64,000 nucleotides of DNA from assembly GCA_963752475.1 (NCBI GenBank), contig CAVVYR010000007.1, forward strand, positions 192,001 through 256,000, written 5' to 3'. The notes beneath the pieces are model-generated. The model was not told the origin of the DNA and did no database searches. It worked only from the letters and a program-made list of their open reading frames with translations. Of this stretch, positions 20,071-52,209 are shown in pieces. The number at the start of each line of letters is the position of its first letter. Position 1 is the first letter of the stretch. The position numbers were made by a program, and so were the translations under genes. Origin of the DNA: an uncultured Chloroflexia bacterium (GTDB lineage Bacteria > Chloroflexota > Limnocylindria > Limnocylindrales > CSP1-4).

Positions 20071-20098
20071 GCCCCGACCCCACGACCCGACGCACGAC

Positions 20099-20130
20099 GA
20101 AGACCCGGTCGCGAAAGCGGCCGGGTCTTC
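20099..20130 (+). terminator. stem-loop terminator after RND copy 1
   Basis: GAAGACCCGGTCGC-GAAA-GCGGCCGGGTCTTC. Confidence 0.7.
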
Positions 20131-20256
20131 TGGTACCTGCGGCACCCCCGAGAAGGGACCACTGGCCCGGCCCGGTTTCGTTCGCCTGCGCGGTACCATT
20201 CGGTACATGCGAACTATTCGTGCAGCCAAAACCGTGCGCGCCACGAGAACCGACTG

Positions 20257-20745
20257 GTGAGCGAGGCCTCGGCCGGCGATCTCCGCCGCGACATCCTCCA
20301 GAGTTTCGAGCTGCTCATGCAGCACGTCGCCCGTTGGCGGCAGGTCGACCTCGCCGACGTCGAGGTCACGATGCCCCAGGCCCGCTGCCTCATGTTCCTG
20401 GCCATCAAACCCTCGATCTCCATATCCGCCCTCGCGGCCCACCTGCGCATCGGCCTCCCCGCCGCCAGCGGCCTCGTCGAGCGCCTCGTGGAAGCCGGCC
20501 ACGTCGAACGCAACCCGGACGCCGATGACCGACGCCAGCAGCTCGTGACCCTAACCGAGCAGGGCCAGGCGCTCGTCGACCGGTTCCACGAGCTGCCCTC
20601 GGAGAAGTTCGGCGTGCTCATCGCTGGCTTGACCGTCAAGGAGCTCCACGGCCTCCGCCTCGGCGTCGCGGCCATCGAGCGCGAGGCCCGCCGCATCGCT
20701 GATGAAGGGCCCCAGCCCACCAGCCCCGAAAGGACCCCTGCATGA
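20257..20745 (+). CDS. MarR family transcriptional regulator (copy 2)
   Basis: VTMPQAR, AASGLVERLV..G.VER..DADDRRQQLVTLT; paralog of 16298-16780. Confidence 0.92.
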   Translation: MSEASAGDLRRDILQSFELLMQHVARWRQVDLADVEVTMPQARCLMFLAIKPSISISALAAHLRIGLPAASGLVERLVEAGHVERNPDADDRRQQLVTLTEQGQALVDRFHELPSEKFGVLIAGLTVKELHGLRLGVAAIEREARRIADEGPQPTSPERTPA

Positions 20746-25603: not shown

Positions 25604-26353
25604 CTAGGAGGCTGCGGGTTCCTCTTCCTCCTTCTTGGCCGCACCGGCGACCCAGATGAGAAGGATGCCGGCGGCGCCGAAGCCGAGGCCCATGAGCAGG
25701 ACCACTGCGGCGATGCCGAGGCCGACCTGCGCGAGCGAGGCCGTCACAGCACCCACGCCGAGCTCGGCGAAGAGGCCGTGCACCGTGCCGCTCCAGGTCT
25801 GCTCACGAGCTGGACCGTCTAGCGGGTGGGTGCGGTTGAACTGCGTCCAGTAGCGCTCGTTGACCGGGACCTCGTAGACGCCGGGGTTGAAGACCTCGTC
25901 CACACCCGTCGTGCTCGGGTCCCACTCACCGCCGAAGTACTCGACCGCGTCCTCCGAGATGCCCTCTTCGCCGTCGCCATCCCACTCGGCCGTCTCGGTC
26001 AGGACCACGTTCTGGGTGCCGGTGAGCGTGTGGTAGGCGATCGTGGCCATCTGGTACATGTACTCGGTGGCCGTGTTGACGAGCGGGTCGTCGGGATCGA
26101 GCTCGCCGTCGACGATGGGCCAGCGCCAGGTCTCACCAAGCAGCTCGAGGATGGCCTCAGCGCCCTCGGTGGTGCCTCGATCGATGAGCTCGCCATCAGC
26201 GTTGTAGCTGAGCTGGACATCCTGGGCCTCGCTGAAGCCCTGCAGCGAGTCCGCGCTCTCCTGCGTGCGCAGGTACGTGTAGCCCGACGCGCCCAGCGCG
26301 ACGATGCCGATGATGATGAGGATCACACCGGTGATCCGAAGCCGTGAAGCCAT
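25604..26353 (-). CDS. hypothetical membrane protein (N- and C-terminal TM, acidic extracytoplasmic domain)
   Basis: Coding-like codon usage; ATG 26353 follows AAGGGAG; two hydrophobic segments. Confidence 0.75.
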   Translation of the reverse strand: MASRLRITGVILIIIGIVALGASGYTYLRTQESADSLQGFSEAQDVQLSYNADGELIDRGTTEGAEAILELLGETWRWPIVDGELDPDDPLVNTATEYMYQMATIAYHTLTGTQNVVLTETAEWDGDGEEGISEDAVEYFGGEWDPSTTGVDEVFNPGVYEVPVNERYWTQFNRTHPLDGPAREQTWSGTVHGLFAELGVGAVTASLAQVGLGIAAVVLLMGLGFGAAGILLIWVAGAAKKEEEEPAAS

Positions 26354-26599
26354 GGAGTTGGGGGGCTCCCTTCTGTCTTGTCGGCTGCTCGCTATGGGAA
26401 GCAGCCGCATATGCCTCTCTGGTCTCGACCATGCTGGAAGAGAATGGATAGAGACTAACTTATCGTTCTCCTCATCTTCGACGTTCTTCGACAGCAACCG
26501 CCGTGCCATATGGCCCGATGTATCAGGGCCGCTTGAACAAGTCCGCTTGAGGAGGTCAGCATGCGAAGGCGAGCGACTGCTCGTTCCCGAGGACCAGAA

Positions 26600-26622
26600 G
26601 AGCCGGGCGCAAGGCCCGGCTC
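26600..26622 (-). terminator. stem-loop after CAP gene
   Basis: GAGCCGGGC/GCCCGGCTC, followed by TTCT on the minus strand. Confidence 0.5.
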
Positions 26623-26646
26623 CGTCAGGTGTCGATGGACCGTCGG

Positions 26647-27243
26647 TCAGTCGAGCTTCTTGCCGTAGAAGTTCATCACCAGCTGGGTCTTCCGACCGCC
26701 GTAGCGCGCGACCCCGACCCCGACGCTCCTGAAGTCCGGATCCTTGATCTGGCGCCAGTGGGGGCCGTTGTAGGACTTCTCAGCCTGCCACATGCGGATG
26801 ATACGGACGACCGTCTTCTTGGCGCTGCCGTACATGCCGCAACCCATGTTCTCGCCATTGGCGATGTGCTTGAGGCTGACCGCGGCGAAGCGGCGATCGA
26901 CGGTGGAGCCGTTTCGCGCATGACCGATCCAGCAGGAGCGGGTGCCGTACCACTGTACCGACTTCCTCACCCAGGGCCACGAAACGCGGTTGGAGATCCT
27001 GGTGCTGTGCTTGAGGGTGCGCATCGCCTTGGAGTGGTTGCCCTTACCCCAGCCCTTGCACTTGCCATTGGCCGTGACGAGACCGCCGCTGCGGATGCAG
27101 TTGGTCAGTCGGATGGCCGTGTCTTCCGCTTCCTTCGCGCGCCAGGGGATGGCGGCCGCGGCGGGGACGGCGGTCAGCGCGACCAGCACGAAGGCAAGCA
27201 CGCTTGCGATCGCGAGGTGGGTGGATGCGGTGCTACGAGTCAT
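26647..27243 (-). CDS. secreted CAP/SCP-domain protein
   Basis: signal peptide; N..R, GH, GEN, W..E..NGPHWRQI.DPDFRSVGVGVA..VMNF. Confidence 0.82.
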   Translation of the reverse strand: MTRSTASTHLAIASVLAFVLVALTAVPAAAAIPWRAKEAEDTAIRLTNCIRSGGLVTANGKCKGWGKGNHSKAMRTLKHSTRISNRVSWPWVRKSVQWYGTRSCWIGHARNGSTVDRRFAAVSLKHIANGENMGCGMYGSAKKTVVRIIRMWQAEKSYNGPHWRQIKDPDFRSVGVGVARYGGRKTQLVMNFYGKKLD

Positions 27244-27519
27244 GCGGCAACTCCTGGCTGCCGCGTGGCCATATGCAACGGGTGGGCCTCCGTTGTTCTC
27301 CCTACGTCACGGGACGCCGAGCTGGGGCTCGATCGGCCGGGCACTGGCCATTTTCATCCCTATCGGCCGACTATCGCTGGGGCGACACCGAGCCGACGAC
27401 CGCCAAAGGGTACCGTGTCTCGGGTCCATTTGTCTTACCCAGTGGGTCTGGCGGCCGGCATCGGGGTAGGCGACTACCGCTAGCATGTGGCCGACACTGA
27501 GGCGGAGGAGAGGCAGCAC

Positions 27520-29066
27520 GTGGACAGCAAGAAGTTCTCGCTCTACGGGAACACGATCACCCCGGACCAGGACCGTAAGGCCCTTGGGTGGCAGCAGATG
27601 TTCATCGACAAGTTCGGCTACGACCCCGATGAACGGTACGAGCTGAGCGTGCACGACAACGCCGAGCTTGGCGATGTGCTGGGGATCCGCGAGATCCGTC
27701 GCGATGCGCAGGGTGATCCCATCGACCGCGAGAACGGCGTCGTCATCTCGACCATCCGCATGGGCTTCGGTCACTACCGCATCGCCATGGCCGGCGCCTC
27801 CGCCGCCCGGGCTCTGGGTTACACGCCCTTGTGGCTGGACCTGCTGGCGATTCCCGGCATCACCCAGGACGCCATCAACTGGTGGAACACGAACTACTCG
27901 AAGTACTCGCGGCTGTCCCAGCGCAGCAGTCTGTTCAACAAGTACGTATGGGAGTCGGTGACTTCGGGCGACAAGACGCTGCCGGGACTCAACTGGTTGC
28001 TCAACAACCGAGCCATCGGCTGGCCCTGGCGCTTCCTCAAGGCCAACGCTCGCGACTACCGCAAGAGCGAGCTGTTCGGTGACCTGCACCGTGCCATGCC
28101 CTCGGACATGCCCATCCTCACCGCCCACATGTGGAATTGCATGGGTGCGGTCGCGGGCGGCATGACCAACGTGGTCGACATGATGTTCGACAACTGGCCC
28201 ATGGCCTTCCAGCTCACGGAGGGCGCCACCCACGGCGGTGCAGTCACCCTCGGGCTACTACGGCTTCCGCATCATGAATCAGTTCGACGAAGAGGACCGC
28301 ATCCTCAATCCCACGCCGGCTGACGCCATCGAGTACGTGGGCCACCACGTGGACCATGAGCTGGTCGAGAACATCGAGGTCGACTGCGCCGCGCGCCTGG
28401 CGCGCATGAGGGACGGCGAGCCGCGCCGGTTCGTGCTCACGATGGGCGGCGCCGGTGCCCAGCGGGAGCTGTTCAAGGCCATCATCGATCACGCCGTCCC
28501 ATGATCGCGCGCGGCGAGATGACGCTCTTCGTCAACCTCGGGCGACCACGAGACGAACTGGGATTGGCTCAAGGGCGAGCTGGGCCCGGCCGCGAAGGAT
28601 CGTGACGCTGCACCGAACGTGGGAGGACACGAAGGCCTACGCCGACGAGATCCGTGAAGGTGAGGCCAGCGGCCTGCACGTCTTCATCTTCGACAACACG
28701 TTCCATGGGGTCTATGCCACCAACTACCTGATGCGCGTGACCGACGTGATGATCACCAAGCCGTCCGAGCTGGCCTTCTACCCCATCCCCAAGATCTTCA
28801 ACGAGCGCGTCGGCGCCCACGAGGCCTGGGGTGCCATCCGCAGTGCAGAGGTGGGCGACGGCACGATCGAGACCCGCAGCATCCCGCGTACGCTGCAGGC
28901 CATCGACCTGCTCGCGCAGGAGACCGACCTCATGGGGCTATTCTGCGACAGCATCGTCAAGAACAAGCGCAGCGGGATCTACGACGGCGCCTACAAGTGC
29001 GTCGCGCTCGCGACCGGCGGCACGTTCGAGCGCACCGACGAGGGCATCTCGTTCACTCGCAGCTAG
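27520..29066 (+). pseudogene. GT-B fold glycosyltransferase-like conserved protein, broken by four single-base frameshifts (likely sequencing errors)
   Basis: MGFGHYR, MGGAGAQ and ITKPSEL motifs. One protein can be rebuilt across shifts near 28234, 28498, 28540 and 28598, each at a short G/C run. Confidence 0.7.
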
Positions 29067-29315
29067 GCCCTCGCGTCCGCTAGCCGTGCCGGCTCGGCTA
29101 CTGCTCGATCGCGCGTACAGGCGATCCTGAGCCGGGGCACCTCGAGCCCGTCGCGTGGGCCGGGCGCCGGCGTGCGTCCCCCGCGGATCGCGTCGACGAA
29201 CGCCTCCAGGTCCAGCCGGACGGCTTCGAAACGGTCGAGGAAGGTCTGGGGGTGGTCGCCCTTGAGGGCCGAAGTCGTGGCTGGATGTCGCCGCAGCCTT
29301 CTGATCGTCCTCCAC
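29063..29315 (-). pseudogene. C-terminal remnant of a Gfo/Idh/MocA (inositol 2-dehydrogenase-like) oxidoreductase
   Basis: GDHPQTFLDRFEAVRLDLEAFVDAIRGGRTPAPGPRDGLE..R..IACTR resembles the IolG C-terminus; no N-terminal Rossmann domain. Confidence 0.55.
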
Positions 29316-40966: not shown

Positions 40967-41835
40967 ATGGTCCCATCGTCGTCACCGGCGCCCTCGGCAA
41001 CGTAGGCTCGGCCGTGGTGGAGCACTTGCTCGGCCGGAGCGCCTCCGTGCGCGCGGTGGACATCCACCCTGACGCGCTGACGGCGCGCTTCGGCTCGGAC
41101 CTCGAGGTCGCCAGGCTCGACTTCGGGGAACCAGCCAGCTTCGCCCCCGTGCTCGATGGCGCGAGGAAGGTCTTCCTCATCCGACCCCCGGCCATCAGCC
41201 GCGTGGGACCGACGCTCAACCGCTTCCTCGATGACGCCGCCGAGGCCGGCGTCGAGCACGTCGTCTTCAGCTCGGTCGCGGGCGCGGACACCAACCGGGT
41301 CGTGCCCCATCACCGCGTCGAGCAGCACCTCTTCGCAGGCGATCTCGCTTGGACCATCCTGCGGCCCGGCTTCTTCAGCCAGAACATCGGCAGCGCCTAT
41401 CGACAGGACATCGTGGAGGACGACCGCATCTTCATCCCCGCGGGGGAGGGCAAGGTCGCCTTCATCGACGCGCGCGACATCGGCGAGGTGGCCGCAGTGG
41501 CCCTGACCGAGGACGGCCACCAAGGTCAGGCCTACCATCTCACCGGGCCCCAGGCGCAGACGATCGAGGAGGTCGCGGCGGTCATGTCCGAGGTCCTGGG
41601 TCGGACGATCAGGTACGAGCCGGCGTCGGCCTTCGGCTACTTCCGCCACCTCCGCGGACAGGGGCTGGTGGTGGTCCAGGCGGTGGTGCAGACGATCCTC
41701 CACGTCGGACTGCGCAAGGGTGATGCCGAGCCGGTGACCGACACCATCGAGCGACTGCTCGGCCGGCCGGCCCGGAGTGTGCAGGAGTACGTGACCGACC
41801 ACGCGGACCTCTGGGCTCAAGACTCCAAGGGCTGA
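40963..41835 (+). CDS. NmrA/atypical SDR family NAD(P)-binding protein
   Basis: VTGALGNVG, WTILRPGFF.QN, FIDARDIGEVAA, LTGP. Confidence 0.88.
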   Translation: MNGPIVVTGALGNVGSAVVEHLLGRSASVRAVDIHPDALTARFGSDLEVARLDFGEPASFAPVLDGARKVFLIRPPAISRVGPTLNRFLDDAAEAGVEHVVFSSVAGADTNRVVPHHRVEQHLFAGDLAWTILRPGFFSQNIGSAYRQDIVEDDRIFIPAGEGKVAFIDARDIGEVAAVALTEDGHQGQAYHLTGPQAQTIEEVAAVMSEVLGRTIRYEPASAFGYFRHLRGQGLVVVQAVVQTILHVGLRKGDAEPVTDTIERLLGRPARSVQEYVTDHADLWAQDSKG

Positions 41836-42003
41836 TATGCGTCGTTGTACGGGGTCGGATGATGACACCGACCCCACGTGGAGACCAGCGAGTGGCTAGC
41901 GACAGGTCCGACCCAAGCGATATGCGTCGTAGCACGGGGTCGGATGATGACATCGACCCCACGGGGAGACCAGCGAGTGGATAGCGACAGGTGGACGATA
42001 GCG
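41834..42003. repeat. two tandem ~85-bp copies of a hairpin-containing element
   Basis: GATATGCGTCGT..ACGGGGTCGGATGATGACA(C/T)CGACCCCACG.GGAGACCAGCGAGTGG.TAGCGACAGGT at 41834 and 41919. Confidence 0.9.
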
Positions 42004-42253
42004 GCACGGCCGCGAACAAAGGTGACCGAGAGATGTCGAGGAGGTCCCCAGACCGACTGAACTTGATGCCGGCCCCCCGACCCTTGGCCGTGACGCTTCG
42101 TCCTGCCGAGTGTGATGCCCACAGGACGATGGTCTCTACGAGCTGCTACGTGCCGCCCCAACGGGAGTCGTGGCCGATTTCTCGGCGTCGTCCGAGAGCG
42201 TGCGGTCGCTTGGCGCAGGGAAGTCGGGTCGAGCTCACGTATGCTCACGACAG

Positions 42254-42646
42254 ATGAGTTCGAACGAGAAGACCAAGGGGCCGGTGCGAGGCTGGGTCCG
42301 GCCCGGCGCGCGTCGCGGTCGCTGGATCGAGCCGTTCGTATTGCTGCTCATCGCCGAAGGACCGATCCACGGGTACTCGGTCATCAGCCAGCTGAACAAG
42401 CTCGGTCTCAACTCCGACGGCGTCGACGTCGGGATGGTCTACCGCACACTGCGAGAGCTCGAGGCCGAGGGCCTTGTCAGCACGAAGTGGGGCCTCGAGG
42501 AGGGACCGCCGAAGCGCGAGTACCAGCTCACCGCGAATGGGCAGGAGTCACTCGATGAGTGGGTCGCGGTGATGATCGAGCGTCGACGCCTCATCAAGAC
42601 GTTCCTTGAGCGGCGTCGTCGGATCGGAGGACCCGAGGAGGGCTGA
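42254..42646 (+). CDS. PadR family transcriptional regulator (copy 1)
   Basis: EPFVLLLI.EGP.HGY, G.VYRTLR.LE.EGLV..W..GPPKREYQLT..G. ATG lies 8 nt after TATGCT. Confidence 0.9.
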   Translation: MSSNEKTKGPVRGWVRPGARRGRWIEPFVLLLIAEGPIHGYSVISQLNKLGLNSDGVDVGMVYRTLRELEAEGLVSTKWGLEEGPPKREYQLTANGQESLDEWVAVMIERRRLIKTFLERRRRIGGPEEG

Positions 42647-42750
42647 CACGGATCCGGCGGGAGTGCCTTGGGCCTTGCTGCCACCGGCCTGGAACTCCGG
42701 ACTCGACGGATCATGGGCCCTTCGGCCCTTGCCGATCCGTTCGTACAACG

Positions 42751-42765
42751 TATGCTATTAGCATA
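42751..42765. promoter_or_regulatory. putative PadR operator overlapping a -10 box
   Basis: perfect palindrome TATGCTA-T-TAGCATA; a 26-bp near-identical copy lies at 50309-50334. Confidence 0.6.
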
Positions 42766-42923
42766 TGACTGCGATAGACATCATTGGCCATGGACCTGCG
42801 GCCGGGTACGTCCAGTTCGAAACTCTGGAGGTTCGCGCGGACAGGCTGCGTGAGCAGCTCGAGCACGTCGAATCGGAGTTCGAAGACCTGACGCCGCAGC
42901 GACGTCAGGCTGGCGGGAGCTAG
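42765..42923 (+). CDS. 52-aa coiled-coil (DUF5320-like) mini-protein, not in the ORF track
   Basis: MTAIDIIGHGPAAGYVQFETLEVRADRLREQLEHVESEFEDLTPQRRQAGGS; resembles the C-terminus of 50742-51077; stop is 4 nt before the radical SAM ATG. Confidence 0.5.
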   Translation: MTAIDIIGHGPAAGYVQFETLEVRADRLREQLEHVESEFEDLTPQRRQAGGS

Positions 42924-42927
42924 ACCC

Positions 42928-44013
42928 ATGACCTCGGGAGTCGCCACCGGTGGCCCCGCGACGGGAGCCGCCGGGCGCACCAACGAGACCGCGACCGATG
43001 TGTCTGCGCACGCCCATCAGTTGCCGATCGTGTTCGGGCCCGTCCACTCGCGTCGCCTCGGCTGGAGCCTGGGTATCAACAACGTGCCGCCCAAGACGTG
43101 TTCCTACGCCTGCATCTACTGCCAGGTCGGCGCTACCACGCGCGCCAGCATCAGGCGAGAAGCCTATCTCGAGCCGAACCTCGTGGCCGAGTCTGCCCTC
43201 GAGCGCATCAGGGCCTGTCGAGACTCCGGGCAGACCATCGACTACGTCACGTTCGTGCCGGACGGCGAGCCGACATTGGATGTCAACCTCGGCGAGGCGA
43301 TCCGAGCCATCCGCGCGCCGGACGTCCGGGTTGCGGTCCTCACCAACGCCAGCCTGCTCTGGCGCGAGGATGTCAGGGAAGACCTCATCGCTGCCGACTG
43401 GGTGTCGCTCAAGATCGACACCGTGGACGAGCGCACGTGGACGCAACTGAACAGACCCATCCGGCGACTCGATCTCACGGTGGTGCTCGAGGGCGTTCGT
43501 CGCTTCGCTGAGGACTTCCGCGGCTACCTCGCGACCGAGACCATGCTCGTGGCCGGCGTGAACGACGACGAGGACGGTGTGCGAAGCGTGGCCGACTTCG
43601 TGCGGTCGCTCCAGCCCTCCCGTGCCTACATCTCGGTCCCGGTCCGGCCCGCTGTCGTGCCCTGGGTGCGACCGCCCCTGGCTGACGTCGCCTTGCAGGC
43701 CGCCGAGTCGTTCGCAGCGACCGGCCTACGGACCACGCTACTCAGTTGCGATCAGGCCGATACGGGTTTTGCACCAGCGCAAGATGTGATCGAGGGACTG
43801 ATAGGGATCCTCGCCGTGCACCCCATGACCGAGCGGGCGGTACGTGAGTACGTGGCGAGGTCGGCGGTCGAATGGCGACGTGTCGAGGAACTGATCGACG
43901 AGGGCACGCTCATCCGGACGCCGCGTGGCCTGACGACGTACCTGTGCCTTGATCATGCCCGCCTGCGAGGTAGCGACGGCACGATGACGGGCCCCGGGCG
44001 GCAAGGAGCGTGA
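42928..44013 (+). CDS. radical SAM protein (COG0731/Tyw1-like family)
   Basis: FGPVHSRRLGWSLGIN, CSYACIYCQ (CxxxCxxC), DGEPTL, LTNASLL, ETMLV.GVND. Confidence 0.88.
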   Translation: MTSGVATGGPATGAAGRTNETATDVSAHAHQLPIVFGPVHSRRLGWSLGINNVPPKTCSYACIYCQVGATTRASIRREAYLEPNLVAESALERIRACRDSGQTIDYVTFVPDGEPTLDVNLGEAIRAIRAPDVRVAVLTNASLLWREDVREDLIAADWVSLKIDTVDERTWTQLNRPIRRLDLTVVLEGVRRFAEDFRGYLATETMLVAGVNDDEDGVRSVADFVRSLQPSRAYISVPVRPAVVPWVRPPLADVALQAAESFAATGLRTTLLSCDQADTGFAPAQDVIEGLIGILAVHPMTERAVREYVARSAVEWRRVEELIDEGTLIRTPRGLTTYLCLDHARLRGSDGTMTGPGRQGA

Positions 44014-44016
44014 CCC

Positions 44017-44967
44017 ATGCGAGCGCAAGGACTCCTGTCGTACGTCCTCTGTCTGTCGTTGACGGCCGTGCTGACCCTCGGCGGCTGCACGGGCTCCAGC
44101 GCCGAGATCGACACCGACCGTCCCGTGGTCGTGGCCACGACGACCATCCTCGGCGACCTCGCTTCGCGTGTCGCCGGGGACGAGGCTGTGGTCGAGGTCC
44201 TGATCCCCATCGGCGCTGACCCGTGCACGTACGAGGCGACGTCGGAACAGGCCATGAACCTCCTCCGGGCCGACCTGGTCATCTCGAGCGGCCTTGGCCT
44301 CGAAGCGGGACTGGCTGAGGCTCTGGGCGAGGCGGAGCGCCGAGGCACCCGGATGCTGCGGCTCGGAAACGAGCTCTACCCGCGCCACGTCGGTAGCGCC
44401 GACGAAGCGCTCGACCCCTACTGGTGGATGGATCCCCTGCGCGCCGCGGGCTCGGTCACGCTCATCGCCGACAGCCTGCTCGGGGTCCGCGATGGCGACT
44501 GGGTGACGCGAGCGCTGGAGGCCGACAAGGCGCTCTGCGCTCTCGATGACCAACTTCGCGATGTGCTGCGACGGAGCGGATCCGAGCCGCGGCGCCTCAT
44601 CACGGACGGGCAGGGGCTCGGGTACTTCGCCGAACGATACGACTGCATCGTCACGGACCTGGACCTGTCACCCCTCGAGTCGCTGGGTCCGTCGTCGGTC
44701 ACGATGGCTCCGACCTGGGCTGACGAGTGGTCCGGCGGAAGCGAGAGCCGGATCCCGCTGAACGTGCCGAGACGACGGGGCGTCAGCCTGGTGGACCCCC
44801 ATATGCCAGGCGGCGTGAGCGCGGAGACGGTAAGCGTCTACGTGGACTCGCTCGGAGCGCCGGGATCAGGGGCCGAGACCTACGAAGACATGATGCGCAC
44901 CAACGCGGATCGGATCACCCACGCCGGGCAGAACGTGCTCGTCGAGTGGACGCATCCGGACGTGTAG
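44017..44967 (+). CDS. ZnuA/TroA-fold metal-binding lipoprotein with non-canonical ligands (copy 1)
   Basis: lipobox LGGC; VVATTTILGD, GADPCTYE, ADLVI..GLGLE, DPYWWMDP, GYFAERY, DSLG..G..TY. Confidence 0.8.
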   Translation: MRAQGLLSYVLCLSLTAVLTLGGCTGSSAEIDTDRPVVVATTTILGDLASRVAGDEAVVEVLIPIGADPCTYEATSEQAMNLLRADLVISSGLGLEAGLAEALGEAERRGTRMLRLGNELYPRHVGSADEALDPYWWMDPLRAAGSVTLIADSLLGVRDGDWVTRALEADKALCALDDQLRDVLRRSGSEPRRLITDGQGLGYFAERYDCIVTDLDLSPLESLGPSSVTMAPTWADEWSGGSESRIPLNVPRRRGVSLVDPHMPGGVSAETVSVYVDSLGAPGSGAETYEDMMRTNADRITHAGQNVLVEWTHPDV

Positions 44968-45023
44968 CCAAACGACAGGCGGAGGCCGGATGATCGCCAT
45001 CCGCCGACAACAGGAAGGTGGCA

Positions 45024-46070
45024 ATGGCCATGGAGAAGTCCGAACTCGATCCACGTTCGACCGCTCGTGCGCTCGTGGCGCCGGGCAAGGGGATCCTCGC
45101 CGCCGACGAGTCGTCCCCGACGATCGAGAAACGCTTCAAGTCGGTCGGTGTGGAGTCGACCGAGGAGAACCGGCAGGCATACCGGGAGATGCTCTTCCGC
45201 ACCCCGGGCATCGAGGCCTACATCAGCGGGGTGATCCTCTTCGACGAGACGATCCGGGGTTCGACCTCGGACGGGACTCCCTTTCCCGAGCTGCTGGCGG
45301 CCCGAGGGATCATCCCCGGCATCAAGGTGGACAAGGGCGCGAAGCCGCTGGCCGGGGCCGCGGGCGAGAAGATCACCGAGGGCCTCGACGGCCTGCGCGA
45401 GCGCCTGGTCGAGTACCGGGATCTGGGGGCTCGCTTCACGAAGTGGCGGGCCGTCTACGCCATCGGTCCCGGGACCCCATCTGAGCGGTGCGTCCGCACC
45501 AACGCCGTCGAGCTGGCCCGCTTCGCGGCGCTCTCGCAGGAGGCCGGACTCGTGCCCATCATCGAGCCCGAGGTCTTGATGGATGGGGAACACGACATCG
45601 AGTCGAGTGCGGACGTGACCGGTCACGTCCTGCAGTCCGTCTTCGAGGAGTTGCATGTCCAACGCATCCGGCTCGAGGAGCTCCTGCTCAAGACGAACAT
45701 GGTGCTGTCGGGCTATGACAGCCCGGACCCGGAATCGCCCGACGTGACAGCCCTTTGGACGGTTCGCTGCCTGGCACGCCACGTCCCGGTGGCGGTACCA
45801 GGCGTCGTATTCCTGTCCGGAGGCCAGTCCGAGGAGCTGGCCACGGTGAACCTCGACGCCATCAACCGGCGCGGTGGCCATCCCTGGGAGCTGTCGTTCT
45901 CGTTCGGGCGAGCGCTCCAGTCCAGCGCACTCCGCGCCTGGGCGAACGATCCCACCGATGTCGCCAGCGCCCAAGGTGAGTTGCAGCGGCGCTCCGCCGA
46001 CACGGCTGCGGCGCGGACCGGCTCGTACGTCCCGAGCGATCCACCCACGAACGTCGGCGCCCATGCCTAG
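45024..46070 (+). CDS. class I fructose-bisphosphate aldolase (glycolytic, eukaryote-like family)
   Basis: ILAADES, GIKVD, FTKWR, PIIEPEV, LLKTNM (Schiff-base Lys), FLSGGQ, FSFGRALQ. Confidence 0.93.
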   Translation: MAMEKSELDPRSTARALVAPGKGILAADESSPTIEKRFKSVGVESTEENRQAYREMLFRTPGIEAYISGVILFDETIRGSTSDGTPFPELLAARGIIPGIKVDKGAKPLAGAAGEKITEGLDGLRERLVEYRDLGARFTKWRAVYAIGPGTPSERCVRTNAVELARFAALSQEAGLVPIIEPEVLMDGEHDIESSADVTGHVLQSVFEELHVQRIRLEELLLKTNMVLSGYDSPDPESPDVTALWTVRCLARHVPVAVPGVVFLSGGQSEELATVNLDAINRRGGHPWELSFSFGRALQSSALRAWANDPTDVASAQGELQRRSADTAAARTGSYVPSDPPTNVGAHA

Positions 46071-46089
46071 CCCATCCTCCAGCTGGTCC

Positions 46090-46316
46090 GGAGCCATGGC
46101 CAACGGTGGTTGACGCCCCCTTGCCGGAATCGCAGCCCCGGTTTCCGCCGCCGCTTCTCGGAGACCGGCCGCATCATCGCCAAGGGCCAAGGCAACTACG
46201 AGTCGCTCAGTGAGATGGCGGCTCCGATCCACTTCCTGTTCAAGGTCAAGTGCTCTGTCGTCGCCGAGCACATCGGAGAGCCGGTGGGTACGCACGTGGT
46301 GACCCGCTCCGACTAA
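46090..46316 (+). pseudogene. C-terminal remnant of a DUF89/ARMT1-like damage-control phosphatase
   Basis: SPGFRRRF...IIAKGQGNYESLSE...IHFLFKVKC.VVAEHIG.PVG; frameshifted NGG-DAP fragment just upstream. Confidence 0.7.
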
Positions 46317-46461
46317 TAGGGCACCTGATGCTCGGTCGCAAGCAGGGCTGTCGGGCGGCATCCGTCCGGCTCGGCCGAAGCGTGGGCCCTACCAGACGGC
46401 ACGGTGATCGGCTGCGGCTCGGCCCGAATCCCAGTCGAGGGTGCGGAAGCGTCTCCGGATG

Positions 46462-47235
46462 TCAGATACGGGAGCGGCCTTGGGCGGCGACCGCGGCCTC
46501 CGCTGCTGCGATCGTCTCGGGATCGCCGAGGTAGCGATGCTCGATCGGTCGGAGCGACCTGTCGAGGCGATAGAGGAGTGGTGTCCCCGTGGGGATGTTC
46601 AGGCCGGCGATCGCCTCGTCATCCAACTGATCGAGGTGTTTGACCAGGGCTCTGAGGCTGTTGCCATGCGCCACCAGCAGGACCCGCTGACCGGCATCGA
46701 GCTGAGGCGCGACCTCGGCATCCCAATACGGGAGGACCCGCTCGATGGTGTCTGCCAGCGACTCGGAACGCGGTAGCAGATCCGTCGCGATGTGGGCATA
46801 GCGCTCGTCCCGCGTCGGCACACGATCATCCCCCGGATCGAGCGCCGGCGGGCGCACCCCGTAGCTGCGGCGCCAGGCATGGACGAGCTCCTCGCCGAGT
46901 CGCTCGGCGGTCTCCGACTTGCTCAGCCCTTGAAGCGCCCCGTAGTGACGCTCGTTGAGCCGCCATGATCTCTGGACCGGGATCCACATCGACTGAAGAT
47001 CATCGAGGACGATCCATAGGGTCCTGATGGCACGCTTCAGGACGGAGGTGAAGGCGACATCGAACCGCAGGTCGGCCTCTCGCAGGTACCGCGCCGCGTC
47101 ATGTGCCTCGGCGATGCCCTGGTCGGTCAGATCGACGTCGGTCCAGCCGGAGAAGCGGTTCTCTCGGTTCCACGTGCTCTCGCCGTGGCGTAGCAGCACG
47201 AGGATCCGCTCAGTGCCGCTGTGGTGCATCGCCAT
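46462..47235 (-). CDS. gpmA: 2,3-bisphosphoglycerate-dependent phosphoglycerate mutase
   Basis: [50 protein letters not shown]. Confidence 0.95.
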
Positions 47236-47249
47236 CTCTGTGCTCCTTC

Positions 47250-47606
47250 CTAGGCCGCGGGCAGCTCGTGGGGCACGGCGTCAGAGGGGCTGCCCCCTCG
47301 CTGGATCGTAAACCGGTAGTCGTCGCCCAGCCTGACATCGAGCAGGGGGTTGCCCGAGGCATGCGTCCACGCGAGCAGGACCAGGACGGAACTCGGGTCA
47401 CTGGACAGGACCTCAAGGACTTCTCCACAGAGGAGACGGCTGATGGCTCGGGAGATCGCGGGCATGGCGTCGGCTACCGAGATCCCGCGTACGTCCGTCC
47501 TGGCGCTCGTGCGGGACTCGCGGTCCTGGGGGACCGTCCGGCCTGGCAGGTCATGGCGCCCGGGCCATGGGAGCCGCAGGAGTGGACCTGATGCGAGGCG
47601 ACTCAT
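47250..47606 (-). CDS. TusA/SirA-like protein lacking the CPxP cysteine
   Basis: DVRG...P...[17 protein letters not shown].....W....GN.LL.....YRFTIQR TusA pattern. Confidence 0.6.
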
Positions 47607-48511
47607 GTCAGAGCCTCAGCGATCCGATCGGCGGTCGTCCACATCATCTCGTAGTAGGTCTCGGCACCGGATCCGGGTCCTCCCAGGGAGCACAGGTCGA
47701 GTGCTACGACCTCCGTGCCCTTGCCCGCCTCGGCAGCGAGAGCTTCGGCGGAGTCCACGGATTTGATGGAGTCGGTGAACACTACGTTGATCCCGTCGGC
47801 CTGCATGATGTCAGCGAGGTCGGCGAGGCTCTCGGGGTCATGCCGTGGACCGGTCGCCCTGCCATCTTCGACGACGCCTCCCACCTCGAAGCCGAAACGG
47901 TCCGCGAAATAACGCAACTCACCGTGCGATGTGAGCAACCGCCGATCGTTGGGTGGAACCCGACCAAGCGCGTTGGCCATCTGTTGGCCGAGCATCGACA
48001 GGTTCGCCGCCACCGCCTCGGCTCTCGGCGCCAGTCTGAGGCACACCGCGGGATCGTCACTCTCCGCGGACAGTCGCTCGGCGATGAGTCGGACCGCTGC
48101 AGCGGCTCGGTTCGGATCCAGCCACCAGTAGGGATCGAGCCTGGTATCGTCCTCTGCTATCGCGAGCGGTCCGAGCATGGCGCCCAACTCGAGGATGGGA
48201 ACGCCCTCGGTGCTGGCCGCGGCGAGAGCGTCGGCGAGGCCAGCCTCCAGGCCGAGTCCGCTGGTGACGATCAGATCAGCGTCGCGCATGTCGGTGGCCT
48301 GGCGGGCCGACGGTCGGAAGTCGCAAGGATCGGCCCCGATGGGCATCAAGACCTCGAGCTGCACCGTGCCGCGACCGATCTGGTCGACGAGATCACCGAC
48401 GATGGACGTCGTCGCGACGACCCGCATCCGGTCCCCCTCGCTCTGGGCGCCCATACATCCGGTCAATGCGAGGGCACTGGCCAGGGCGAAGGTCAGTAGG
48501 CGGATGATCAT
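47603..48511 (-). CDS. ZnuA/TroA-fold metal-binding lipoprotein with non-canonical ligands (copy 2)
   Basis: lipobox LTGC; VVATTSIVGD, GADPCDFRPS, DPYWWLDP, TSHGELRYFADRFG, CSLG.PGSGAETY. Confidence 0.85.
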   Translation of the reverse strand: MIIRLLTFALASALALTGCMGAQSEGDRMRVVATTSIVGDLVDQIGRGTVQLEVLMPIGADPCDFRPSARQATDMRDADLIVTSGLGLEAGLADALAAASTEGVPILELGAMLGPLAIAEDDTRLDPYWWLDPNRAAAAVRLIAERLSAESDDPAVCLRLAPRAEAVAANLSMLGQQMANALGRVPPNDRRLLTSHGELRYFADRFGFEVGGVVEDGRATGPRHDPESLADLADIMQADGINVVFTDSIKSVDSAEALAAEAGKGTEVVALDLCSLGGPGSGAETYYEMMWTTADRIAEALT

Positions 48512-48562
48512 GGCTCACACTCCTCATGTCTCGGGATCGGCTGGCCTCGCACGGCGTGCGCG

Positions 48563-49591
48563 TCAGGCTGCAAGGACGACGGCCGGTGTCGTCCGACGGG
48601 CGCGATCACAGGTCGCGAGGCGAGTGGCCCAGCGGCAGAGCATGTCCTGGGCCGCGTGCGCATCCCTGTCATGCCGTGCCCATGCACGCAGCGTGCTCGC
48701 CATGGCGTCCGGGCCCAACGAGTACGACAGCGGCCACGGGAGGTCGCGCCGGCGTTGGATCCTCTCGCAGGATCGCGCAACCACGGCTGCTGGCAACGAC
48801 TCGGCCGAGAGCACCACGCCCGGCACCTCCTCGGGAACCTGCCCTCGGAGACAGCCCAGGGTCGCCATCGCGACCGAGTCGGGATCGACCTTCTGCATGA
48901 AGCCATGGTTCGGCGCGATGAGGCTGGCGCCGATCAGGAGATCCTCGATGCTGGCGTGATGGACGTAGAGCTCGGCGACCAGCGTGGCGAGGGCATCTTC
49001 CATGGTGCGACGGCTCCGCTCGATATCGTGGTCACCGAAGGGGGCGATCCGGACGTCGACGATGGGCAACAGGCCGGCCTGCTGCGAGAGGGTCGCGAAG
49101 TTGGCCAGTCGGACCGCGTTCGTCCTGATGCACGTCTCGGTAGGCATGTCGTGGTCGATGAGGCAGTACGCACGCCAGGTCGCGAACCTCGCACCACGCC
49201 GGCGGTACTGCTCGAGTCGATCGGGGAGATGCTCGATGCCGGCGGTCACGCCCTCGCGGGACGAACCTGTGAACATGCGCTGCCCCAGGTCGACCCGGAT
49301 CCCCGGCATGAGCTGTCGCTCGGCGAGCAGCTCCACGAATGACGGGCCCTTCGTGACTCGCTGTCGGATGGCCTCGTCTGAGAGGACTACCCCGCTGACG
49401 TGCTCTTCGAGGCCCGGGGTCGTGAACAGCATCTGCCGGTATGCTCGCCGGTCCTCCGCGGTCGAGCCGAGCCCGGCCCAGCGGAAGCGTCGCTCCACGA
49501 TCGGGACCGGTTCATCGACCGCGAGGATCACCTTTCTCGGCGCGACCAGGGTCAGTGCCTGGTCCGACAGTTCCTGTGTTGCGCGCTGCAT
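48563..49591 (-). CDS. class I aldolase-like pseudoenzyme (catalytic residues lost)
   Basis: Collinear with 45024-46070 but reads GIRVD, FATWR, PIVDVRI, LLIGASL and YSLGPDAM at the catalytic motifs. ORF is intact; ATG 49591 follows AGAAGGGA. Confidence 0.8.
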   Translation of the reverse strand: MQRATQELSDQALTLVAPRKVILAVDEPVPIVERRFRWAGLGSTAEDRRAYRQMLFTTPGLEEHVSGVVLSDEAIRQRVTKGPSFVELLAERQLMPGIRVDLGQRMFTGSSREGVTAGIEHLPDRLEQYRRRGARFATWRAYCLIDHDMPTETCIRTNAVRLANFATLSQQAGLLPIVDVRIAPFGDHDIERSRRTMEDALATLVAELYVHHASIEDLLIGASLIAPNHGFMQKVDPDSVAMATLGCLRGQVPEEVPGVVLSAESLPAAVVARSCERIQRRRDLPWPLSYSLGPDAMASTLRAWARHDRDAHAAQDMLCRWATRLATCDRARRTTPAVVLAA

Positions 49592-50309
49592 GGCGTCCCT
49601 TCTGCCTCGCCTGGAGATGGTGTCCGCGGCGCTGTCCGTTGCCTCCACGTGGCACGACTACCCCAGTCGCGTTTGGTTAGTGTTTTTAGCATTTGTATGC
49701 GTTTAGCATCTATATGTTAGACGCGTTCCACAAGGGCCGGTAGGCCTCATCGGTCGTGCCCTGCGGACTGGGTCTCCGGATCGAGAGACGTGACATCTCG
49801 ACATCCCGAGCGAGGGATGACAGGAGGCTGTGGAGCGTCCGGATCGGAGGGATAGACGTCAACGGGAGCGCATGGGCGGGTCCGGCATCGACAGGGTCGA
49901 CCGGACGCCACGCCCGGCTCCAAGAGGTTCTCCGACCGGCCACGTGATGCCTTCTGGCCCTTGGCGTCGACTGTGGCACACGTATGCTAAGAGCATGCAG
50001 ATGTCATTGACGATCTCCCACCGAAGGCAGCAAGAGATGAACCCAGGGACTCGACGACGCGGATACGTGCCTGAGTCGCGCCAGCTTGTCACGCTGGCGA
50101 AGCCTGGTCGCCTGCCACAGGTCCCGGGCCAGACGCCTCCGGAGTTGCTGCTCGAACTGCTCTAGGCGTGATGGGTGTGCCCAAGCAGGCTCACCCTACC
50201 CGCCGTGGACAGCACCGCCGTGGCCGTCGAAACGGGGAACGAGGGTTCGACACCAAGCGCTCTCCCGGGACCCGCAGGCTGGCGCAACCTCGATGGAACC
50301 CAAGAGGTG

Positions 50310-50324
50310 TATGCTGTTAGCATA
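50310..50324. promoter_or_regulatory. putative PadR operator overlapping a -10 box
   Basis: TATGCTGTTAGCATA ends at the PadR copy 2 ATG; weaker copies at 49696 and 49983. Confidence 0.6.
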
Positions 50325-50740
50325 TGACTGCGATGAACACTGAGCGACGAGTCGGAAGCGGCTGGAGCACACGAGGACACCATCACGGCGCGCACCACAG
50401 TTCACGTCGGGGGCGCTGGGTGGAACCCTTCGTCCTGCTGCTCGTGGCCCAGGGGCCGACCTACGGATACAAGCTCATAGGTGAGTTGGACGAGCTGGGT
50501 GTGGCGCCTGAAGGGATCGATCCCGGGATGGTCTATCGCACCTTGCGAACCATGGACGCAGACGGCCTCGTGACCACAGCATGGGGCCTGGAGGGCGATC
50601 AGCCCCGACGTGAGTACCGCCTCACCGAGGATGGTGCCTGCGCCCTCGAGGACTGGCTCGACGTCATGAACGAGCGGCGACGCCTCATCGACCACTTCAT
50701 CCAGCACGGAGCTGCCATCACACGAGAACAGGGGAGATGA
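50324..50740 (+). CDS. PadR family transcriptional regulator (copy 2)
   Basis: RRGRWVEPFVLLLV.QGP.YGY, GMVYRTLR, RREYRLT; paralog of 42254-42646; His-rich N-terminus (GHHHGAHH). Confidence 0.9.
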   Translation: MTAMNTERRVGSGWSTRGHHHGAHHSSRRGRWVEPFVLLLVAQGPTYGYKLIGELDELGVAPEGIDPGMVYRTLRTMDADGLVTTAWGLEGDQPRREYRLTEDGACALEDWLDVMNERRRLIDHFIQHGAAITREQGR

Positions 50741-50741
50741 T

Positions 50742-51077
50742 ATGAGTTGCCATCACCGCTACTACCCGCATGGCTGCGGCGATTGGCCCGCGCCACCACC
50801 CGACTGGTACGACGCCTATGGCTACCGGCCGAGCCGCTATCGCGATGACGTCGTCGTGCTGCGCGACGAAGGTGACGAGGACTTCGCGGAAGAACGTCCA
50901 CGCCGACGCCGTGGAAGCGGACGAGGACGCTATCGCCGAGCAGGCGACATCGTCACCGAAGAGGCCACGGTAGCGTCGCTGCAGTCCCAGGCTGAGGCAC
51001 TTCGAGATGAGCTGGTCCGGATCGAAGCTGAACTGGCCAAGCTTTCGGCGGAGCCCAGCCAGGCGTCGGATACCTGA
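50742..51077 (+). CDS. DUF5320-like protein (Cys/His N-terminus, Arg/Gly-rich linker, C-terminal coiled coil)
   Basis: MSCHHRYYPHGCG..RRRRGSGRGR..SLQSQAEALRDELVRIEAELAKL; GGGGAG RBS. Confidence 0.65.
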   Translation: MSCHHRYYPHGCGDWPAPPPDWYDAYGYRPSRYRDDVVVLRDEGDEDFAEERPRRRRGSGRGRYRRAGDIVTEEATVASLQSQAEALRDELVRIEAELAKLSAEPSQASDT

Positions 51078-51309
51078 TCCGAGCTGGAGGCTGCGAGTAG
51101 GACCCTTGGGCGTTAGAACTCGCGGCTGGAAGGCGCGGCCGCCCTGCAGTTGACGCTCTTCGAGGAGCTCGAGCCGACCGCCTGAAGGGTCCACTCACCC
51201 GGCCGCCAGCCCCTGTCTAAGGGGCGCAAGAAGGTCTTGACACAAAGGTGTACTGCGGCGGTACTATATCGCCGCCAAAGCGGGGGGTGAGGAAGAGAGG
51301 AGCACCCAC

Positions 51310-52209
51310 ATGACCCGAGATCGAAGTTGGCTAGCACTACTGAGCCTGACCCTCTCGCTACTGCTTGTAGCACCGCTGACCGTCGCAGCCCAGGAGGATT
51401 CGTTCGACTCTGACGGAGTGCCCATCGCCTACACGGACACCGGTGGTGATGGCGAGCCCGTCGTGCTGATCCACAGCTTCCTCAGCTCCTCGGACATGTG
51501 GACCAACGCCGGGTTCGAGCCGTCCGACGATCTCCGCTTCATCGCGCTCGATCTTCGTGGCCACGGTGACAGCGGGAAGCCAGAGGGCCCCGAGGCCTAC
51601 GGGCTCGAGGTAGTCGAAGACGTGGTTCGTCTCATGGACCACCTGGGGCTCGAGGATGCACACGTCGCCGGCTACTCGATCGGGGCGGAGGTCGCCCTCC
51701 GGCTGGCCGCCGAGCACCCCGAGCGGCTGCGCTCGCTCGTCGTTGCTGGCTCTGGCTGGTCGGATCCGGCCAAGGAAGGCGAAGTGTATTCCGGCGTGGC
51801 CATGGGCCTCGCGGCCAGCCCCACCATCCGCGACCTGGTCATGGCCGGCATGCCGGAGGACATCGAACAGGAGACGCTCGACTTCATGTTCGGGGTGATG
51901 GAGCAGCACGGCATCGACCTCGACTACGACGGCACCACCGGACTCGCCGGCGTGGCCGGATCGATGAGCGAGATCCTCGGCCTGACCGAGGAGGACATGG
52001 CCGCGATCGATGTCCCGGTCCTCGGCCTCGTGAACGAGAACGACAGCGAGCGCCCCAACATCGAGCGCATGGAGGGCGTGGTCCCGGACTTCGAGCTCGT
52101 GCTCATCCCAGCCGGCCCGACGGGCGAGTCCGACCTGGACCACCTGGGAACCACCACCGACCCGCTGTTCAAGAGCAGCATCATCGAGTTCCTGTCCGCG
52201 CAGGCATAG
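51310..52209 (+). CDS. secreted alpha/beta-fold hydrolase
   Basis: signal peptide; VVLIH, DLRGHGDS, GYSIG nucleophile elbow; GAGGAG RBS. Confidence 0.88.
   Translation: MTRDRSWLALLSLTLSLLLVAPLTVAAQEDSFDSDGVPIAYTDTGGDGEPVVLIHSFLSSSDMWTNAGFEPSDDLRFIALDLRGHGDSGKPEGPEAYGLEVVEDVVRLMDHLGLEDAHVAGYSIGAEVALRLAAEHPERLRSLVVAGSGWSDPAKEGEVYSGVAMGLAASPTIRDLVMAGMPEDIEQETLDFMFGVMEQHGIDLDYDGTTGLAGVAGSMSEILGLTEEDMAAIDVPVLGLVNENDSERPNIERMEGVVPDFELVLIPAGPTGESDLDHLGTTTDPLFKSSIIEFLSAQA

Follow-up and report, generated by a model that had tools for sequence, protein, structure and literature searches.

A PadR-associated gene cluster in a Chloroflexia bacterium with zinc-site-less binding lipoproteins, a conserved pseudo-aldolase and metal-independent glycolytic enzymes: a possible metal-shortage regulon

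The DNA studied here is a 64-kb stretch (positions 192,001 to 256,000 of contig CAVVYR010000007.1, listed with a length of 672569 bases, assembly GCA_963752475.1) of an uncultured Chloroflexia bacterium, called the window below, and the subject is a cluster in which two PadR-type regulators stand together with a radical S-adenosylmethionine (radical SAM) enzyme, two ZnuA-like binding lipoproteins and glycolytic genes. The window is chromosomal DNA of 67% G+C, with housekeeping genes on both flanks (RecO, a class II tRNA synthetase, PPDK, DnaG and RpoD). The cluster is bordered by an NmrA-like gene on the left (stop at 41835) and an alpha/beta hydrolase gene on the right (start at 51310), with 12 genes between them. 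Families were assigned by Pfam and NCBIfam to the 12 cluster proteins and by Pfam to 42 flank proteins of the window, and all 12 genes listed in an earlier note on this DNA are found in their places. The plus-strand arm opens with PadR1 (42254-42646; PF03551, 58 bits), the ATG at 42254 being preferred to the listed ORF start at 42170. It is followed on the same strand by a mini ORF of 52 aa (42765-42923; no family matched), the radical SAM gene (42928-44013; PF04055, 62.9 bits), ZnuA-like1, here ZnuA1 (44017-44967; PF01297, 124.6 bits, well matched only at profile positions 1-196 of 263), the class I fructose-bisphosphate aldolase FBA1 (45018-46070; NF033379, 476 bits) and a C-terminal stump of a DUF89/ARMT1 protein (46110-46316; profile positions 250-310 of 311). 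The minus-strand arm is convergent on it and contains FBA2, an aldolase-fold pseudoenzyme (48563-49648; 276 bits; likely start at 49591, where its database form P0121 begins), ZnuA-like2, here ZnuA2 (47603-48511; PF01297, 176.5 bits), a TusA-like or DUF2249-like small protein (47250-47606; PF01206, 21.1 bits with a cut-off of 28.6) and gpmA (46462-47235; NF010713, 384 bits with a cut-off of 305). On the plus strand again lie PadR2 (50324-50740; PF03551, 54.5 bits) and a small Cys/His coiled-coil protein of 111 aa (50742-51077; no Pfam family at E<=0.01). Spacing inside the arms is tight, with gaps of 3-51 nt and a single overlap of 4 nt between ZnuA2 and the TusA-like gene: only 3-4 nt separate the mini ORF from the radical SAM gene and the latter from ZnuA1, FBA1 starts 50 nt after ZnuA1, the TusA-like gene and gpmA are 14 nt apart, and the small-protein gene begins 2 nt past the PadR2 stop codon. 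Between the FBA2 arm and PadR2 there is a divergent gap of 676 bp (49649-50323) with no recognisable gene; Pfam matches neither of its two ORFs, the minus-strand one at 49710-49979 and the plus-strand one at 49830-50165. In an Rfam search of the whole window the single match is a tRNA at 63362, neither the cluster nor the gap showing a riboswitch, and a consensus scan of 41700-51400 gave 0 promoter-like and 2 terminator-like sites, not above shuffled sequence.

The core of the cluster recurs in other genomes. The radical SAM protein carries the CxxxCxxC motif, with C58, C62 and C65 invariant in 34 of 34 sequences. One source labels it COG0731-type 'wyosine-like'; identity with the wyosine synthase TYW1 was considered and rejected, as TIGR03972 gives 15.7 bits against a cut-off of 318 and TYW1 (2yx0) ranks only 50th, with a TM-score of 0.38, when the AlphaFold model (pLDDT 73.8) is compared with the PDB. 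The best structural matches are generic radical SAM cores only (6fz6, PFL-activase, NifB, viperin and LipA), with TM-scores of at most 0.47. A genome scan built on the alignment of the 34 homologs yielded 80 loci, the best of them just 53-54% identical, and these closest relatives are L001 and L002, both in Chloroflexia metagenome-assembled genomes. In these two of the 80 loci the radical SAM gene is flanked by PadR (55-61% identity) and ZnuA (43-48%), all on one strand in the order PadR with a His-rich N-terminus, small Cys/His coiled-coil protein, radical SAM, ZnuA, ABC-3 permease and ABC ATPase. L002 alone has a Zn-ribbon protein, Dps and hemerythrin between radical SAM and ZnuA, a ZIP transporter adjoins the operon in both, and a hemerythrin gene stands beside that of L001; the permease, ATPase, ZIP, hemerythrin and ferritin/Dps neighbours were confirmed by family. 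The link to metal handling suggested earlier thus gains support, since the same core precedes a complete ZnuABC importer beside ZIP in both loci. Of the co-occurrence proposed as a check in the earlier note, one part stands, namely the PadR/radical SAM/ZnuA core; the other does not, with aldolase or gpmA near 0 of the 80 radical SAM loci.

Linkage of the radical SAM gene with ZnuA is seen more widely when tables of protein matches are compared by eye: nine radical SAM matches (about 55%) and ZnuA matches (about 48%) lie on contigs of equal size (60995, 67825, 16763, 15593, 9297, 37077, 54488, 8087 and 25766 bases), which indicates that the linkage is common in that group. Among these protein matches the orthologs of the radical SAM enzyme reach 78-83% identity, and one of them (P0002, 83%) is likewise on a contig of the same size, 60995 bases, as a ZnuA2-type protein (P0169). 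Within 5 kb on either side of the 80 loci we count MinD/ParA-ferredoxin ATPases (45 loci), MBL-fold proteins (24), DUF5320 (13), CGGC (12), Zn-ribbon proteins (11), ArsP_2 exporters (10), DUF89 (6), ZIP (5) and FeoB (5). An annotated record, a megaplasmid region of Peptoclostridium acidaminophilum (L081; NZ_CP007453.1, 343975-358907), has the order DUF5320, radical SAM, SDR, DUF134, MBL, Fur-family regulator, ARMT1-like (DUF89) and Mrp/NBP35, with HydG, an ArsR/SmtB regulator and a peroxiredoxin in the vicinity. In the plasmid collection there is one distant radical SAM match (32%, Peptoclostridium) and no similar cluster. A further homolog, P0119, is a fusion of the radical SAM protein (PF04055) with a hemerythrin domain (PF01814), 513 aa long, and echoes the hemerythrin genes of L001 and L002.

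A 13-bp palindrome, ATGCT-N3-AGCAT, marks the starts of the units. The form ATGCT-N3-RGCAT is exact at 42752, 49984 and 50311, that is, six strand matches, with all three sites in the cluster and none elsewhere in the 64 kb, while shuffled controls have a mean of 0.18 matches and reach six in 0 of 100 cases. A first guess with an N4 spacer had no match in the cluster, and N3 is the right spacer. The putative operator O1 (42752-42764, ATGCTATTAGCAT) is a perfect palindrome abutting the ATG of the mini ORF, within a 31-nt stretch of 90% identity to the PadR2 start region, and the perfect O4 (50311-50323, ATGCTGTTAGCAT) abuts the PadR2 ATG in the same way. O2 (49697-49709, ATGCGTTTAGCAT), which has one mismatch, precedes the FBA2 arm and is surrounded by AT-rich sequence, and O3 (49984-49996, ATGCTAAGAGCAT), perfect again, is an orphan within the divergent gap. 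Three transcription units have a palindrome at or just upstream of their start: mini ORF-radical SAM-ZnuA1-FBA1, FBA2-ZnuA2-TusA-like-gpmA, and PadR2-small protein. A degenerate putative operator, ATGCT-CAC-GACAG (42241-42253, plus strand), abuts the ATG of PadR1 with the spacing seen at the perfect sites and retains the left half-site alone. The recurrent palindromic motif reported earlier is hence confirmed, in three exact copies, one with a mismatch and one degenerate. In L001 and in L002 a single palindrome (ATGCTATTGGCAT and ATGCTTCTGGCAT, respectively) is directly followed by the PadR ATG; four further loci have one match each, which is roughly the chance level for about 1 Mb. Co-regulation of the units, as the earlier note supposed, is supported both by the frequency of the palindrome at unit starts beyond chance and by the near-identical copies abutting the PadR start codon in two Chloroflexia loci. 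As a separate observation, PadR genes linked to canonical DUF5320 in L075 (at 7443), L006 and L023 share another upstream motif, TTGACAAATTG..., which contains the 5-N3-5 palindrome TGACA-AAT-TGTCA; its layout is as in the window while the half-site is different.

Both regulators are members of the PadR family, well above the PF03551 cut-off of 27 bits. PadR1 is as close to the PadR proteins of L001 and L002 (55-61%) as to PadR2 (58%). In the alignment PadR2 has a His-rich insert, GHHHGAHH, ahead of the winged helix, which PadR1 does not have. The small protein encoded directly behind PadR2 has an N-terminal C-x-H...H-x-C motif, in which C3, H5, H10 and C12 are invariant in all three aligned sequences. 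It falls short of membership in DUF5320 (PF17253), with 15.4 bits (E=0.043, C-terminal part only) against a gathering score of 27, whereas true members from L075 and L052 reach 93-95 bits. The hhalign comparison reaches 94% probability, restricted to 35 columns at the C-terminal end, and the Atlas match is to a DUF5320 cluster at 0.85. Given the hhalign, Pfam and Atlas results and the same position upstream of a radical SAM gene, we treat the small protein as a divergent DUF5320 relative and not as a member. The mini ORF begins like PadR2 (MTA) and ends in a coiled coil of DUF5320 type, without the Cys/His motif; its similarity to the small protein is confined to that coiled coil (E=2e-4, for that single comparison), and it may be a deletion relic or a mere leader. 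Complex prediction for PadR2 with the small protein gave a score of 0.00 that counts neither for nor against a contact, the predicted fold of the small protein itself being uncertain. The known ligands of PadR proteins are organic, namely phenolic acids and drugs, and the mycobacterial member Rv3488 is reported to bind cadmium; with the corresponding NCBIfam model, NF053635, the window proteins score only 23-25 bits.

What signal such a pair might respond to can be considered from the neighbours. The signal favoured below is a shortage of divalent metal, probably zinc; the same PadR regulon could also answer to iron, Fe-S or oxidative stress, which we consider unlikely. The Cys/His partner would then sense the redox state or an Fe-S cluster, and class I aldolase and gpmA would be of use as enzymes without oxidant-sensitive metal centres. 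Hemerythrin and Dps inside the L002 operon, hemerythrin beside that of L001 and the hemerythrin fusion of P0119 agree with this, as do the Fur-family regulator and peroxiredoxin in the Peptoclostridium neighbourhood and the need of the radical SAM enzyme itself for an Fe-S cluster. However, the core in L001 and L002 carries a ZnuA-type importer with three histidines together with ZIP, pointing to zinc, a CHHC motif and His-rich tails would serve for zinc or nickel no less than for redox sensing, and Pfam and NCBIfam detect no redox enzyme in the window cluster.

The two ZnuA-like proteins retain lipoprotein signal peptides, as read from the sequence, and have lost the zinc site. Three histidines, with or without an aspartate, at the ligand columns are the mark of zinc binding. 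The relatives in L001 and L002 have His at three columns (GADPH, DPHWW and TSH; H/H/H), whereas ZnuA2 has C/Y/H/C and ZnuA1 has C/Y/G/D, compared with H/H/E/D in MntA (5hx7), so that neither window protein has the ligands of a zinc-specific cluster A-I substrate-binding protein. The Cys/Tyr variant described earlier is indeed present in both copies; it is not conserved among orthologs. In members of the ZnuA2 clade, 64-77% identical, the first three ligand columns vary (H/R/C, H/Y, Q/R/H), and the Cys/Tyr pair is therefore particular to the window genome. The fourth column, on the other hand, is Cys in every clade member aligned, while canonical proteins have G, D or E. A segment of about 70 residues in the C-lobe of ZnuA1 shows no likeness to any canonical binding protein in any reading frame, and a frameshift origin was rejected by tblastn with seven relatives, which found no similarity in other frames. 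Searching 1.84 billion representatives, we found full-length relatives of ZnuA1 in P0278 (66%) and P0280 (46%), plus fragments, and these share the remodelled C-lobe segment, a C-terminal extension and the non-His ligand columns. One shorter relative, P0353 (154 aa), has a ZnuA1-type N-terminus and a C-terminus like the Zn-ribbon protein of L002 (11026-11250); probably two adjacent genes have been joined in it by the gene call or by a frameshift. The best NCBIfam model for both window proteins is AztC, with 129 bits for ZnuA1 and 200 for ZnuA2, below the cut-off of 350. No permease or ATPase gene is adjacent: tblastn with ZnuB of L001 and L002 and ZnuC of L001 found no relic in the window, the sole ZnuC match, at 34 kb, being an ATPase that belongs to an unrelated ABC system of the amino-acid type, and a window search for relics of ZIP, Dps, hemerythrin and Zn-ribbon genes found none either.

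As for the glycolytic genes, alignment shows FBA1 with K107, K146, E187, K229 and R303 all in place (numbering that we take to follow rabbit muscle aldolase), and with its 476 bits it qualifies as a class I enzyme, Schiff-base-forming and metal-independent, with intact catalytic residues. FBA2, aligned to FBA1 and human aldolase C (1xfb), has instead K107R, K146T, E187D, K229G and R303P; the Schiff-base lysine is gone, as are four more residues of the catalytic or phosphate sites, and the dead aldolase of the earlier note is thereby corroborated. Automatic annotation would call it an aldolase, since the NCBIfam cut-off is passed (276 against 250). The same losses are shared by five of 37 FBA2 relatives, four at 77-83% and one at 49%, and the identity of the closer orthologs is on a par with that of the radical SAM orthologs, while the plasmid collection holds only ordinary class I aldolases, at most 40.5% identical to FBA2. 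An FBA2 ortholog (P0122) and a ZnuA2 ortholog (P0166) are on contigs of equal size, 205447 bases. The gpmA product, with RHGES and HGNS motifs in its translation, is predicted to be a 2,3-bisphosphoglycerate-dependent and metal-independent phosphoglycerate mutase (dPGM); it is above the cut-off of the E. coli-type model (384 against 305) and below that of the actinobacterial-type model (335 against 366). The TusA-like protein appears to lack the active-site cysteine of TusA: its match begins at profile position 18, after the CPxP Cys motif, and alignment by eye places Asp at the cysteine position; TusA clusters in the Atlas at 0.83 are a lead only. The DUF89 gene is not the working part that had been supposed. 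Its 68 aa, starting 40 bp after the FBA1 stop codon, match residues 227-283 of the 292-aa DUF89 protein of L069, that is, the last ~57 of the ~290 aa of a full DUF89/ARMT1 domain. It is best taken as the relic of an ancestral neighbour, since DUF89 recurs near this radical SAM family, including the Peptoclostridium record.

These genes also bear on the metalloid detoxification modelled on GAPDH-ArsJ, in which glycolytic paralogs would make an unstable sugar-phosphate analogue that is then removed. Genes for ArsP_2-type 'heavy-metal exporters' in 10 of the 80 radical SAM loci, the recurrence of DUF89 (6-7 of 80 loci and the Peptoclostridium record) and cysteine at the ligand columns of the binding proteins would agree with it. 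Against these stand the DUF89 gene reduced to a stump, the loss in FBA2 of the Schiff-base lysine and both phosphate-site residues, and the variation of the Cys/Tyr pair among orthologs; moreover, Pfam finds no ArsP_2-type exporter, ArsR, ArsC, ArsJ or GAPDH among the 12 cluster and 42 flank proteins. The analogy drawn in the earlier note is accordingly not supported, and we hold detoxification to be very improbable.

The composition of the cluster is foreign to its surroundings. The G+C content at third codon positions (GC3) is 0.813 over the 2557 codons of the cluster and 0.883 over the 15877 codons of 41 genes in the flanks (Mann-Whitney p=2.9e-5), and per 1000 codons CGA occurs 19.6 against 7.4 times, GGA 13.3 against 4.0 and ATA 1.6 against 0.3, a 2.6- to 5-fold enrichment. 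The codon-usage scan agrees with the impression that A/T-ending codons are commoner here than in the flanks, and the horizontal acquisition proposed with it is supported. GC3 is lowest in the small protein (0.67), the mini ORF (0.72), PadR2 (0.73) and ZnuA2 (0.78), reaches 0.806 in gpmA (z=-1.96) and is near native in FBA1 (0.863, z=-0.37). Composition together with the relatives in Chloroflexia is in keeping with an outside origin of the cluster, which may have been acquired in several steps. Four gene types do occur twice (PadR, ZnuA-like, aldolase, and mini ORF/small protein), with identities of 58% between the PadR copies, 39% between the ZnuA copies and 42% between the aldolases. The internal duplication read from this does not hold, however: the copies are old paralogs and not the product of a recent internal duplication, because ZnuA1 and ZnuA2 do not group as sisters and separate orthologs exist elsewhere for each of them. 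In a maximum-likelihood tree of 34 ZnuA-type proteins, ZnuA2 falls in a clade of nine with support 100/100, and ZnuA1 sits on a separate and very long branch (1.65, with a median of 0.16). Nor do the copies form a decaying duplication, the outcome that the earlier note had set against itself, as other genomes conserve the odd ones; both ZnuA-like lipoproteins are maintained, and so is the dead aldolase, since orthologs elsewhere show the same oddities.

Some further features of the window are recorded here. Directly after the stop codon of the NmrA-like gene, at 41834-41992, there are two tandem direct repeats of 74 nt, 93% identical and each with a G+C-rich hairpin; they are the only two copies in the window, stand at the left edge of the cluster and could be a boundary scar or a terminator-like element. 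At 16298-24068 a MarR regulator with an RND (ACR_tran) transporter pair is found twice in tandem (16298-20070 and 20257-24068), and at 26000-29100 the G+C content drops to 0.63-0.65 in a segment where a DUF6937/DUF6938 gene pair (27487-29066) is accompanied by two ORFs that match no family.

We tentatively propose, as the reading we favour although we put it at somewhat less than an even chance, that the cluster is a PadR-run regulon of foreign origin which answers to a shortage of divalent metal, probably zinc, and spares metal in glycolysis. PadR dimers would bind the palindromes and repress; metal held on the His-rich PadR segment, on the CHHC motif of the co-translated small protein, or on both, would keep the repressor on DNA, and a shortage of metal would release it. 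In the lineage of the window the membrane parts of the importer would have been lost, and the two binding-protein genes would have diverged into distinct, conserved subfamilies of lipoproteins that lack the site of three histidines, and for which metal hand-over or sensing is possible. The regulon would further have taken in class I aldolase and dPGM, so that with FBA1 and gpmA glycolysis may need neither the metal-dependent class II aldolase nor the Mn-dependent phosphoglycerate mutase iPGM. Such a protection is described, in the accessible parts of two reports, for Staphylococcus aureus under manganese starvation, where metal-independent GpmA and the class I aldolase FdaB serve (PMC6684088, PMC9973326). 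A simpler reading of the glycolytic genes would go by this analogy, in that both belong to metal-independent enzyme classes and suggest an S. aureus-type substitution. A bolder extension, which we regard as doubtful, is that PadR with its co-translated CHHC coiled-coil protein forms an unrecognised two-protein metal sensor, standing in for Zur before zinc-uptake operons in some Chloroflexia and Actinobacteria, and that the regulon of the window has grown into a metal-economy module in which metal-free glycolytic enzymes stand beside a conserved pseudo-aldolase and a pair of orphan lipoproteins devoid of the zinc site. The pseudo-aldolase and the lipoproteins may in that case act as signalling or hand-over parts, and not as enzyme and transporter.

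Several observations weigh against the metal-shortage regulon. Rearrangement in parts of the cluster is evident from its eroded zinc sites, from the mini ORF and the orphan operator, and from the truncation of DUF89. PadR1 has no His-rich segment and a degenerate operator of its own. PadR proteins are not established metal sensors, and 'padr' has 0 occurrences in the accessible text of a large 2024 review of bacterial metal sensing. Iron or redox state would account for the hemerythrin, Dps, FeoB and Fe-S ATPase neighbours as readily as zinc; of the 80 radical SAM loci, 45 have MinD/ParA-ferredoxin ATPases nearby and 5 have FeoB. Aldolase, gpmA and TusA-like genes are near 0 of the 80 related radical SAM loci, so the link from metal to glycolysis is known in the lineage of the window only, the general sugar-phosphate link of the earlier note is not upheld, and the recruitment of aldolase and gpmA may be lineage-specific or only adjacency. 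Of the glycolytic links, just that of FBA2 with ZnuA2 is confirmed elsewhere, and indirectly, by the equal contig sizes. In addition, radical SAM relatives more than 54% identical exist, yet none is among the 80 loci. Lastly, dPGM is commonly a housekeeping enzyme in Actinobacteria, so that gpmA may not be a spare one.

Much of this can also be read as a patchwork, in which the palindromes serve only autoregulation of PadR and a radical SAM/ZnuA relic, FBA1 and gpmA being housekeeping neighbours of a rearranged and partly eroded island. The absence of aldolase and gpmA from the related loci, the usual occurrence of dPGM in Actinobacteria, the near-native GC3 of FBA1 and the signs of rearrangement (DUF89 stump, mini ORF, orphan operator and 676-bp gap) speak for it. 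We nevertheless think it improbable, for gpmA ends a tightly packed arm led by FBA2 behind O2, FBA1 follows closely on ZnuA1, gpmA has a low GC3 and fits the E. coli-type and not the actinobacterial-type model, and the orthologs P0122 and P0166 are on contigs of equal size.

If the metal-shortage reading is true, PadR with a small Cys/His partner joins the short list of bacterial metal sensors, and the aldolase/mutase substitution known from S. aureus is hard-wired into an operon derived from metal uptake in an environmental bacterium. It would also give a testable entry to DUF5320 and this radical SAM family, both common in anaerobes; the two-protein sensor, if true, would be the first functional handle on their widespread neighbourhoods there. 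The cluster would also offer two kinds of conserved pseudo-proteins, a dead class I aldolase and zinc-site-less lipoproteins, which automatic annotation would label aldolase and zinc/manganese transporter subunit.

Literature searches found no description in print of this combination of genes, which the earlier note did not recognise as described either, and a comparison with known systems shows what it shares with each. The PadR-family repressors with palindromic operators are alike in the winged helix, the palindrome at the own gene and the C-terminal helix; as far as found, nothing has been described in that family like the segment rich in His, the Cys/His partner translated together with PadR, or a Znu operon under PadR control. 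The cluster A-I importers ZnuABC and AztABCD, of which L001 and L002 hold complete examples, resemble the window pair in PF01297, in AztC as the best model and in the lipoprotein signals, while in the window the His ligands are replaced, a partner permease and ATPase are missing and the C-lobe of ZnuA1 is remodelled. The locus for selenocysteine-assisted organometallic transport (SAO) likewise has Cys or Sec at the binding site of its substrate-binding protein in a conserved multi-gene metal locus, according to the accessible part of the preprint by Haft and Gwadz; it was rejected as a relative, as that part describes a binding protein of another family, strictly anaerobic hosts, a MerB-like enzyme and no shared genes. 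The anaerobe neighbourhoods with DUF5320, DUF134, Mrp-MinD, MBL, DUF89 and radical SAM are apparently uncharacterised, only incidental mentions of DUF5320 and DUF134 having been found in the literature. Their radical SAM enzyme is of the same family as that of the window, 13 of the 80 loci have DUF5320 close by, Peptoclostridium has it immediately ahead of the radical SAM gene, and DUF89 recurs; the window differs in having no Fe-S ATPase, MBL, CGGC or DUF134 genes, and the N-terminus of its DUF5320 relative is of the CHHC type instead of being rich in Gly and Pro. The nearest functional parallel is given by the Zur-type zinc-sparing regulons together with GpmA and FdaB of S. aureus (PMC6684088, PMC9973326, as far as accessible), which likewise bring uptake genes and metal-independent substitutes under one control, with the same substitution. 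Unlike control by Zur, MntR or ArlRS, the regulator in the window is a PadR protein with a small Cys/His partner. The glycolytic genes stand inside the operons themselves, and the cluster has no permease or ATPase; its extra members are the radical SAM enzyme, the dead aldolase, which is conserved, and the zinc-site-less binding proteins.

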